A stretch of 64,000 nucleotides of DNA. Origin: Escherichia coli. GTDB lineage: Bacteria; Pseudomonadota; Gammaproteobacteria; Enterobacterales; Enterobacteriaceae. The position numbers were made by a program, and so were the translations under genes. Shown one piece after another: positions 55,672 to 57,314 of the stretch. The first letter of the stretch is position 1; each line of letters begins with the position of its first letter. The notes beneath the pieces were generated by a model, which saw nothing but the letters and a program-made list of their open reading frames with translations, searched no databases and was not told the origin of the DNA. The DNA is taken from NCBI RefSeq assembly GCF_003334405.1, contig NZ_QOWM01000002.1; one strand, written 5' to 3'.

Positions 55672-56916
55672 TTAATTACGCAGGGCGCTATTTGCCAGAC
55701 GATCGTCTTCTGCCTGGCAAGCTGCCGCAGTGAACAGCACGTCAGTTGAAGAGTTCAGCGCGGTTTCGCAAGAGTCCTGCAATACGCCGATGATAAAGCC
55801 GACGGCAACCACCTGCATGGCGATATCGTTCGAAATACCGAACATATTACAGGCCAGTGGGATCAGCAGCAGAGACCCCCCCGCCACGCCGGATGCGCCA
55901 CAGGCACACAGAGAAGCCACCACGCTCAACAGCAGCGCCGTGGGCAGATCGACCGGAATACCCAGCGTATTAACCGCAGCCAGCGTCAACACGGTAATAG
56001 TGATTGCTGCGCCCGCCATATTGATGGTGGCTCCCAGCGGAATAGAAACGGAATAGGTATCGCGATCCAGATTCAGCTTTTCACACAGCGCCATATTCAC
56101 CGGAATGTTCGCTGCAGAGCTGCGGGTGAAGAAGGCATACACACCGCTTTCGCGCAGGCACAGCAGCACCAGCGGGAACGGGTTACGACGAATTTTCCAC
56201 CACACCAGCAATGGGTTAACCACCAGCGCCACCAGTAACATACAGCCAACCAGCACGACCAGCAGTTGCGCGTAGCCCCACAGTGTGGAGAAACCGGTGG
56301 TTGCCAGGGTAGAAGAAACCAGCCCAAAAATACCAATCGGTGCGAAGCGAATGACCAGTTTCACCATAAAGGTAACGGCATTCGACATATCGTTAACCAG
56401 GTTTTTGGTGGTCTCGTTACCGTGACGCAGTGCGAAGCCGAGGCCGATCGCCCACACCAGAATCCCGATGTAGTTACCTTTCAGCAGCGCGTCGATGGGG
56501 TTGGAAACCATGCTCATTACCAGCCCGCGCATCACTTCGACAATGCCTGACGGCGGCGAAATATCACCCGCGCTACTGGATAAATGCAGGGTAGAAGGGA
56601 AGGCAAAGCTGAAGACTACTGCGGCCAGAGCAGCAGAGAAGGTGCCCAGTAGATAGAGGAACAAAATAGGGCGGATATTGGTTTTCTGCCCGTGCTGGTG
56701 GTTAGCAATAGATGCCATCACCAGCATCAACACCAGGATGGGGGCAACGGCTTTCAGTGCGCCGACGAACAAAGTACCTAACAGACCAACAGCTTCCGCC
56801 GCGGGTTTTGAGATCCATGCCAGAAGAATCCCCAGAACAAGGCCGACCAGGATTTGTTTTACCAGGCTGCCATGAGCCAGACGCCGGAATAGCCCCGGTG
56901 AACGTTGCGTAGTCAT
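55672..56916 (-). CDS. sstT: Serine/threonine:Na+ symporter
   Basis: 414-aa polytopic [46 protein letters not shown]..., DAACS family; convergent with ygjV (4-nt gap). Confidence 0.9.
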
Positions 56917-57160
56917 TTTTCGATCCTTTCATTGTGTTGTCGCACATCCCTGGTGCGTTCTGTCGACGCATCTTTCAGGATGTAACAAAGTGTTTGCAAG
57001 GTCGAGTATAAGGAAAGTTACAGCTTCGGGAAGCGAAAAATGCTGGATTTTAAAGAGAGGTCATATTTTGAAACTTAATGGTTACATTTATTTGACATAA
57101 AAATAAAGCCAACGTGCGGCTTCCAGACTGATGACAACATCAAAAAAGGACTCGGTCAGT

Positions 57161-57265
57161 CCCCTCGCCCCGTTTGGGGAGAGGGTTAGGGTGAGGGGAA
57201 CAGGCCAGCATCGGTGCGAAAAATTACCCTCACCCCGACCCTCTCCCTGGAAGGGAGAGGGAGAA
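57161..57265. repeat. GC-rich nested palindromic intergenic element (box C-like)
   Basis: cccctcgccccgtttggggagagggttagggtgaggggaa ... ccctcaccccgaccctctccctggaagggagaggg: perfect 9-bp stem ccctctccc/gggagaggg with a 5-nt loop, plus gggtgagggg/ccctcacccc pairing. Confidence 0.6.
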
Positions 57266-57314
57266 AACGGTGCTCATGTTAATGACAGGGTACACGGCTT
57301 AGGCAGATTAAAAA

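Follow-up and report, generated by a model that had tools for sequence, protein, structure and literature searches.

A convergent pair of BoxC repeat units between alx and sstT in Escherichia coli: anatomy, allelic variation and local instability

The GC-rich palindrome located between alx and sstT in the 64-kb stretch of Escherichia coli DNA analyzed here (the window) consists, with near certainty, of two convergent BoxC units, one of type A and one of type B. The pair is probably a non-autonomous, structure-forming repeat that is tolerated downstream of alx and has local instability as its evidenced effect, without being a dedicated regulator of alx or sstT; the part of this account that concerns how the pair works is one that we infer. 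The pair itself was already known and has been catalogued at exactly these coordinates. The additions made here are allele frequencies in 5,426 genomes, the endpoints of a deletion, and a repeated composite of ~140 bp that is larger than the 36-nt motif.

Identity, anatomy and structural potential

The window represents a K-12-type E. coli chromosome in reversed orientation relative to MG1655, and the coding sequences of alx and sstT gave the conversion window = 3296860 - MG1655 coordinate. A distance of 53 nt separates the alx stop codon from the start of the pair, and 245 nt lie between its end and the sstT start codon; the pair thus spans the region 245-345 nt upstream of the latter, and the coding-sequence coordinates (Table 1) bear out the original prediction that the element lies 3' of alx and within the sstT upstream region. 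The GC content of positions 57161-57265 is 63%, compared with 41% for the remainder of this intergenic region and 50% for the window, which places this block in the top 2.2% among 105-nt windows. The perfect 9-bp stem with a 5-nt loop that had been reported from it is present as CCCTCTCCC (57239-57247), a TGGAA loop and GGGAGAGGG (57253-57261), and becomes 10 bp long if the loop is reduced to 3 nt. A larger palindrome with 24-nt arms that are 88% complementary (57177-57200 and 57224-57247) encloses this stem, and a third arm pair is formed by 57160-57170 and 57189-57199. The description of the block as a GC-rich nested palindrome is therefore confirmed by its sequence, its inverted-repeat arms and its GC content. 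RNA folding, which had been proposed as a check, yields a very stable hairpin on both strands, with -66.9 kcal/mol and z = -4.1 for the alx-sense (minus) strand and z = -4.6 for the plus strand, and none of 200 shuffled controls folded as well. The corresponding single-stranded DNA fold has -33.1 kcal/mol (z = -6.0).

The original assignment to the box C family proved correct, as two published catalogues list both units by coordinate. Using the published three-block pattern CCCTCNCCC-N3-6-GGGNGAGGG-N3-GGGNGAGGG as the consensus, exactly two matches were identified in the window, 57162-57197 on the plus strand and 57227-57261 on the minus strand, whereas shuffled sequences give an expectation of 0.00; a chance palindrome was rejected on the basis of this expectation and of the shuffled folds. 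The name BoxC goes back to Bergler et al. 1992 and was also used by Bachellier et al. 1999. The TMECO motif was introduced with the remark that it had been "earlier described as BoxC" and was found again as PIT by Hoyne and Maher (Holder 2015, PMC4666352), the PIT elements being the subject of Hoyne et al. 2000 and of Hoyne & Maher 2002. Table 1 of the TMECO study contains 23 copies in MG1655 (Holder 2015, PMC4666352). Two of these copies are relevant here: TMECO no. 12, a type B motif at MG1655 3239599-3239634 (+) with the sequence CCCTCTCCCTTCCAGGGAGAGGGTCGGGGTGAGGGT, and TMECO no. 13, a type A motif with one mismatch at 3239698-3239662 (-) with the sequence CCCTCGCCCCGTTTGGGGAGAGGGTTAGGGTGAGGGG (Holder 2015, PMC4666352). 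They convert to window positions 57226-57261 (-) and 57162-57198 (+), respectively, and the sequences are identical. The same two units appear as HPG2 #34 and HPG1 #35, annotated "alx >>> sstT", in a later catalogue (Kaplan 2016, PMC5100583), and Petrillo et al. 2008 include BoxC among the known repeat families of E. coli, with a length of 56 bp and 32 copies. Published copy numbers in E. coli range from 22 to 32, including the 23 motifs of Holder 2015 (PMC4666352). The family has been rediscovered four times, as a palindrome, a triplex, a G-quadruplex and an instability hotspot, none of which revealed a function or a mechanism of spread.

Each BoxC unit follows the same plan: a C-rich block is separated by a loop from its G-rich complement, which is followed in turn, after a loop of 3 nt, by another G-rich block in mirror orientation to it (Table 1). 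Read on the minus strand, the type B unit is CCCTCTCCC-TTCCA-GGGAGAGGG-TCG-GGGTGAGGG-T and includes the perfect 9-bp stem. The second loop is TTA in the plus-strand (type A) unit and TCG, a CCG-like loop, in the minus-strand (type B) unit, and the convergent arrangement leaves a gap of 27-28 nt between the two.

Table 1. Coordinates of the BoxC pair, its flanks and neighboring features in the window
Feature	Position	Strand	Evidence or remark
alx	57315-58280	-	coding sequence
sstT	55672-56916	-	coding sequence
BoxC type A unit, one mismatched triad	57162-57198	+	pattern match; TMECO 13; HPG1 #35
Type A block 1, CCCTCGCCC(C)	57162-57171	+	followed by loop GTTTG
Type A block 2, GGGAGAGGG	57177-57185	+	followed by loop TTA
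Type A block 3, GGGTGAGGG(G)	57189-57198	+	end of unit
BoxC type B unit	57226-57261	-	pattern match; TMECO 12; HPG2 #34
Spacer, 27 nt, with central palindrome GCA-TCGG-TGC at 57208-57217	57199-57225	.	paralogue alignment; folds
Type-A-side flank, AGACTGATGACAACATCAAAAAAGGACTCGGTCAGTC	57125-57161	.	partly conserved among paralogous copies
Type-B-side flank, AGAAAACGG	57262-57270	.	partly conserved among paralogous pairs
Strain-variable cassette	57101-57310	.	three states: full pair, collapsed hairpin, unrelated segment of ~350-420 bp
Left deletion endpoint, direct repeat GGGAGAGGG	57177-57185	+	simulated deletion
Right deletion endpoint, direct repeat GGGAGAGGG, 76 bp from left copy	57253-57261	+	simulated deletion
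Terminator-like hairpin T1, alx-sense	57144-57166	-	consensus scan; -10.4 kcal/mol, z = -2.8
Terminator-like hairpin T2, alx-sense	57105-57123	-	consensus scan; -7.5 kcal/mol

The alx/sstT copy is among the five inverted pairs of one type A and one type B motif that were described in K-12 (Holder 2015, PMC4666352). Four convergent pairs of MG1655 (alx/sstT, hrpB/mrcB, fepB/entC and ygfF/gcvP) were aligned, and their similarity extends over the spacer, the sequence GAACAGGCCAGCAYYGGTGCGAA being common to three of the four, and over ~35 bp of the type-A-side flank. Single type A copies at adk/hemH and zntA/tusA have the proximal flank in common with the alx/sstT copy. Because of this similarity in spacer and flank, the duplicated unit is a composite of ~140 bp rather than two motifs of 36 bp. 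Insertion of the units into pre-existing hairpins, or the presence of an outer enclosing helix, was rejected, as same-copy flanks (-16.9 kcal/mol) did not differ from cross-copy flanks (-16.6 kcal/mol; p = 0.34).

The two units also have a marked potential for non-B structures. Judged by its sequence, the type B unit offers nine of nine canonical purine-motif triads (G.G:C, A.A:T and T.A:T) and the type A unit eight of nine, the third block running antiparallel to the purine block. G-quadruplex motifs, defined as four runs of at least three G with loops of 1-7 nt, were identified at 57176-57198 (+) and 57227-57247 (-), and they are the sole two in the 64-kb window. CD and NMR measurements showed that the TMECO family can form triplexes in vitro; DMS footprinting of another BoxC copy in vivo did not detect a triplex (Holder 2015, PMC4666352). 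For the HPG motifs, a switch between G-quadruplex and hairpin was demonstrated by CD (Kaplan 2016, PMC5100583). At the BoxC-pair locus no Rfam family reached its gathering threshold; the best matches were generic miRNA hairpin models with at most 27 bits versus 72-105 bits, and these sub-threshold matches are explained by the long hairpin.

Copy number, alleles and local instability

A blastn search with positions 57150-57275 against 5,426 complete E. coli genomes identified BoxC matches in all of them, the number of places per genome ranging from 1 to 30 (median 17). Nearly all of these places are chromosomal (83,181 of 83,215), the other 34 being on plasmids, and K-12 derivatives have 19 places, in good agreement with the 18 published K-12 loci. 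BoxC therefore constitutes a dispersed, multi-copy repeat family. The copy-number search, which had been proposed as a check because a single-copy element would speak against a repeat, thus supports the suggested repeat family, and a single-copy element is rejected by the median of 17 places. The second part of that suggestion, that the repeat is a mobile one, is unproven, as clean empty sites, clean presence/absence polymorphisms and target-site duplications were seen at none of the three loci inspected (alx/sstT, adk/hemH and zntA/tusA).

Three classes of alleles were distinguished at alx/sstT by megablast of positions 56880-57400 followed by the alignment of representatives. The full pair, as in K-12, is present in ~2,606 of the 5,426 genomes (~48%), whereas a short allele lacking 76 bp was found in ~1,139 (~21%), counted as genomes with at least 80% coverage minus the full-pair genomes, and long alleles with a replaced segment in ~1,660 (~31%). 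An intact pair is thus absent from this location in ~52% of E. coli genomes, and alx and sstT are retained. In the long alleles a region of ~210 bp (window ~57101-57310) is swapped for an unrelated segment of 350-420 bp. Divergence among the alleles begins just past the alx stop codon, while ~185 bp upstream of sstT (56917 to ~57100) are common to them. The short allele can be traced to a simple event: a simulated deletion from one GGGAGAGGG direct repeat to the other yields, but for one base substitution, the short allele as found in strains MS1737 and EC13, and leaves a single chimeric hairpin. This allele illustrates the "palindrome effect" described for inverted TMECO pairs, for which a comparison of 56 strains also points to instability (Holder 2015, PMC4666352).

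The same kind of replacement occurs at the BoxC locus adk/hemH: from the stop codon onward, ~46% of genomes continue with another sequence, a segment of 158 bp being replaced by one of 54 bp. At zntA/tusA the BoxC unit is conserved. A set of 52 G-quadruplex sequences, 23 of which are BoxC copies, was found to be enriched in MutL-bound replication-error regions with Z = 10.6 (Kaplan 2016, PMC5100583); at the level of the family, the link between BoxC and instability is a correlation. A plausible course of events begins with single-stranded DNA exposed during replication, repair or transcription, in which a unit may adopt the form of a hairpin, of an intrastrand triplex of the purine motif or of a G-quadruplex, and the pair as a whole may fold into a hairpin of ~100 nt or a cruciform. 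Such folding would juxtapose the two GGGAGAGGG direct repeats, and replication slippage would then delete the intervening 76 bp, while in other lineages the entire post-stop segment has been exchanged. Transcripts of alx entering the pair would form a very stable RNA hairpin, their termination occurring more probably at the weak hairpin and U-tract sites downstream.

At the level of the element, the alx/sstT pair does not differ from the family described under the names BoxC, PIT, TMECO and HPG, of which it is a member. Its resemblance to other classes of repeats is partial. Like REP/BIME sequences, BoxC units are short GC-rich intergenic palindromes that often occur as inverted pairs in multiple copies, lie mostly beyond gene 3' ends and form stable RNA hairpins. 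However, the sequences are unrelated, BoxC has far fewer copies, its third G-rich block confers triplex and G-quadruplex potential, and no cognate RAYT, IHF or gyrase binding, or mRNA-stabilizing role has been demonstrated for it. REP/BIME was accordingly rejected as an identity, since there is no similarity to the REP palindrome GCCGGATGCGGCG...CTTATCCGGCCTAC; a true REP was seen in the zntA/tusA region of UTI89. The composite that is duplicated whole, with two inverted units and a short conserved spacer, resembles REPINs (Bertels & Rainey 2011) and MITEs such as ERIC/IRU, but the BoxC pair lacks an associated transposase, a target-site duplication and a clean insertion polymorphism. In common with H-DNA-forming mirror repeats and G-quadruplex sequences, BoxC possesses mirror-related purine blocks with a complementary pyrimidine block, four tracts of at least three G with loops of 2-3 nt, and an association with deletions and hypervariable flanks; in contrast to these, it is a dispersed family with conserved sequence and no simple-sequence tract, and its structures have been demonstrated only in vitro and on single strands. 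A GC-rich hairpin 3' of a stop codon is also reminiscent of a Rho-independent terminator, yet the BoxC stems lack a direct U-tract, and the terminator-like sites in this region are separate small hairpins.

BoxC blocks in other bacteria

A pattern scan of a genome collection identified the three-block core outside E. coli as well, the four organisms among the matches listed serving as examples rather than as a taxonomic distribution. A metagenome-assembled genome (MAG) of Methylomirabilota contains at least 13 copies, including three convergent pairs with gaps of 29-31 nt as in E. coli. The betaproteobacterium Roseateles (Mitsuaria) chitosanitabidus, in which the core is greatly amplified, has at least 145 copies in the genome stretches scanned, and the core is also present, among the matches listed, in a Contendobacter MAG and in an unclassified MAG. 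The free positions of the pattern are occupied by the same bases in all taxa listed, and the loops are lineage-specific. In Mitsuaria the unit measures ~50 nt and has sharp ends. No Rfam matches were obtained for the Mitsuaria and Methylomirabilota loci.

With respect to the neighboring genes, 4 of 105 Mitsuaria copies are located between divergent, 34 between convergent and 67 between tandem genes, and in K-12 two of 23 motifs lie between divergent genes (from the table of Kaplan 2016, PMC5100583). Among the Mitsuaria units situated 0-30 nt past stop codons, 49 of 53 are antisense to the gene, so that the C-rich strand is in the mRNA (p = 7e-11). The gene calls were checked on a sample of eight ORFs, all of which have NCBIfam matches, several reaching the end of the family profile. 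The same tally for K-12, with six antisense and three sense units, is not significant (from the table of Kaplan 2016, PMC5100583). As far as could be found in the literature, there is no earlier report of such a post-stop orientation rule.

Alternative explanations and implications

The palindrome had also been proposed to act as a transcriptional terminator or insulator, and this proposal lacks support on several grounds. By sequence inspection, a U-tract directly after either BoxC stem is absent. Term-seq data contain no 3' end in MG1655 3239500-3239899, the mapped ends being in the alx leader (MG1655 3238482, strong) and in the sstT leader (3239923) (Adams et al. 2021). BoxC/PIT elements are reported to have neither promoter nor terminator activity (Holder 2015, PMC4666352, citing Hoyne & Maher 2002). 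An intrinsic terminator was rejected for these reasons. Two weak terminator-like hairpins are separate from the BoxC hairpins and lie downstream of the pair on the alx-sense strand (Table 1). T1 reads GAGGGGACU-GACCG-AGUCCUUUU followed by UU, and its 5' arm overlaps type A block 1; it is locus-specific, its stem not being kept in paralogous copies. T2 reads GAAGCCG-CACGU-UGGCUUU followed by AUUUUUAU, and is present in the short allele and missing from the long alleles. Read-through of alx is induced by alkaline pH. Because this induction and the strong 3' end in the alx leader suggest little transcription of the alx 3' region in the Term-seq libraries, the search for alx 3' ends, which had been put forward as a further check, provides a weak negative.

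The main rival of a tolerated repeat is a role at the RNA level, akin to the mRNA-stabilizing 3' structure that had also been proposed, in which the pair is a 3'-UTR element whose ~100-nt hairpin blocks 3'-to-5' exonucleases and/or aids the adjacent weak terminators; if so, alx mRNA would be stabilized and read-through into sstT limited. The location of the pair 53 nt past the alx stop codon and the stability of its alx-sense fold agree with such a role, as do a run of six T and another T-rich hairpin within 60 nt after the pair, the partial conservation of the A/T-rich run at the type-A end in paralogous composites, the preference of the family for gene 3' ends and its avoidance of divergent promoter regions, and the orientation-specific post-stop placement in Mitsuaria. 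We nevertheless consider this role rather unlikely. The missing U-tract, the missing Term-seq end at or just after the pair, the reported lack of terminator activity of PIT elements and the lack of conservation of T1 all count against it, and ~52% of E. coli genomes do without the intact pair. In addition, the hairpin has an uncompensated central mismatch in ~40% of copies, in E. coli and Mitsuaria alike: at its free position block 1 carries either T or G, and block 2 keeps its A (58 of 59 Mitsuaria G copies being uncompensated), and there is no sensible association between this position and block 3. These uncompensated mismatches therefore provide no evidence of selection on Watson-Crick pairing.

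It is quite unlikely that the pair is a miniature mobile element, a REPIN-like replicative unit copied by an enzyme that recognizes the folded three-block structure, despite several observations that such a model would explain. The spacer and flanks common to paralogous pairs indicate that the ~140-bp composite was duplicated whole, copy number varies considerably among E. coli genomes, the convergent architecture recurs in Methylomirabilota with a similar gap, and Mitsuaria has accumulated many copies. Yet slippage deletion and segment replacement, instead of clean empty sites with target-site duplications, were found at the two polymorphic loci, very few places are on plasmids, and the pair spacing in Mitsuaria varies from 30 to 272 nt. 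There is, moreover, no association of the motif with transposons, phages or plasmids, and most TMECO sites are at the same loci across 56 strains (Holder 2015, PMC4666352); no candidate transposase is known. A role as a regulatory element of sstT, be it an insulator, a promoter-proximal DNA structure or a protein-binding site, appears highly improbable. The pair does lie in the sstT upstream region, and a non-B DNA structure might in principle be sensitive to supercoiling, but the three allele classes differ only beyond the ~185 bp next to sstT, which all of them share, and because of this the sstT promoter and leader are most likely located in the conserved segment and the BoxC cassette is dispensable. 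Furthermore, the genes flanking the family have no common functional class and there is no favored distance to the ORF, nor is promoter activity reported for the family (Holder 2015, PMC4666352).

The non-random placement of the family and the identity of its blocks in distant taxa give a hint of constraint or function beyond "junk". The BoxC unit may accordingly be other than inert, as a cross-phylum element that is constrained or used at gene 3' ends, and the alx/sstT pair would then be a working 3'-end module and not debris; this is regarded as a doubtful proposition. The Mitsuaria bias could stem from a function of the C-rich strand in the RNA, such as the protection of transcripts by a hairpin at the 3' end or by a pyrimidine-motif triple helix; it could also reflect strong selection against G-quadruplex- or triplex-forming DNA on the non-template strand, or a mobilizing enzyme aimed at gene ends.

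For the window, the tolerated, structure-forming repeat remains the preferred interpretation, most of the functions originally proposed being unsupported, and it is suggested that the locus be annotated as a BoxC pair (TMECO 12 and 13), and neither as a terminator nor as an sstT regulator. The orientation rule in Mitsuaria leaves this verdict on the alx/sstT pair unchanged and offers a concrete starting point for finding out what constrains the family. In E. coli, the intact, collapsed and replaced alleles form a natural allelic series that may be used to test how the pair influences slippage and the expression of alx and sstT.

Replacement of BoxC-bearing segments in intergenic regions

At alx/sstT, approximately 31% of the 5,426 E. 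coli genomes carry a GC-rich segment of ~350-420 bp instead of the BoxC pair, and the ~285-bp core of this segment is itself a repeat, being present in 3-5 copies per genome. The replacement segment matches the Rfam TwoAYGGAY RNA at 33.1 and 30.9 bits, sub-threshold scores relative to the gathering score of 43, and in some records a 48-aa hypothetical protein is annotated within it. At a second BoxC locus, adk/hemH, the stop codon of adk is followed by 158 bp that comprise a BoxC unit and a terminator-like hairpin, and in ~46% of genomes this whole stretch gives way to an unrelated 54-bp segment with a hairpin of its own. The replacement starts exactly at the adk stop codon, and adk/hemH shares the 'swapped 3' cassette' pattern of alx/sstT. 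In the zntA/tusA region of UTI89, an additional REP (BIME-type) palindrome insertion of ~165 bp directly adjoins the conserved single BoxC unit; the REP and BoxC families both accumulate in this one short convergent intergenic region.

Coordinates of BoxC-like units and associated segments, given within each locus
Feature	Locus	Position	Genome	Region
Segment replacing BoxC pair	L003	325-745	E. coli EE72d	alx/sstT
Segment replacing BoxC pair	L004		E. coli NCTC9112	alx/sstT
K-12 copy of ~285-bp core	L010	1201-1485	K-12-type genome	yohP/dusC intergenic
Intergenic allele, 158-bp segment with BoxC	L131	171-328		adk/hemH
Intergenic allele, unrelated 54-bp segment	L133/L134	171-224		adk/hemH
Extra REP insertion	L135	175-330	UTI89	zntA/tusA
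Convergent three-block unit pair	L012	1551-1651	Methylomirabilota MAG JACPAT01	
Convergent three-block unit pair	L017	1031-1130	Methylomirabilota MAG JACPAT01	
Convergent three-block unit pair	L018	985-1086	Methylomirabilota MAG JACPAT01	
BoxC-like unit, ~50 nt	L019-L125		Roseateles/Mitsuaria chitosanitabidus NBRC 102408	

Leaders of alx and sstT

The alx leader, which we take to be a pH-responsive RNA element, would in that case appear not to be represented in Rfam, as the leader region (window 58281-58700) yielded no Rfam match at E <= 1. Published Term-seq data place a strong 3' end in this leader at MG1655 3238482 (window 58378). The same type of published data contain a strong RNA 3' end at window 56937 (MG1655 3239923, minus strand of the window), 21 nt before the start codon of sstT. 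This end points to attenuation within the 5' UTR of sstT or to a leader transcript of short length.

BoxC-like units in distant taxa

The genome stretches examined of Mitsuaria NBRC 102408 hold 145 BoxC-like copies. Of the 53 units located 0-30 nt past a stop codon, 49 are oriented antisense to the gene in question (p = 7e-11), and the end of some units is directly abutted by the stop codon (C-TGA-AGACCC). Sense-oriented units lie at a greater distance from the stop and are second members of divergent pairs, and just 4 of 105 copies occur between divergent genes. No orientation bias of BoxC in E. coli is reported in the published accounts of the family consulted here.

The pairs in JACPAT01, a GC-rich MAG from a phylum other than that of E. 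coli, have spacers of 29-31 nt and end sequences identical to those of the E. coli alx/sstT pair. Contamination of the MAG may be their source; the blocks of the units are identical to those of E. coli, whereas the loops differ.

At the sixth base of block 1 (window 57167 in the type-A unit), E. coli and Mitsuaria copies alike have either T or G: 13 of 23 E. coli copies belong to the 'mm' types, and G occupies this position in 59 of the 145 Mitsuaria copies. As the block 2 base that pairs with this position is constantly A, an uncompensated central mismatch recurs in the family and is common to distant taxa.
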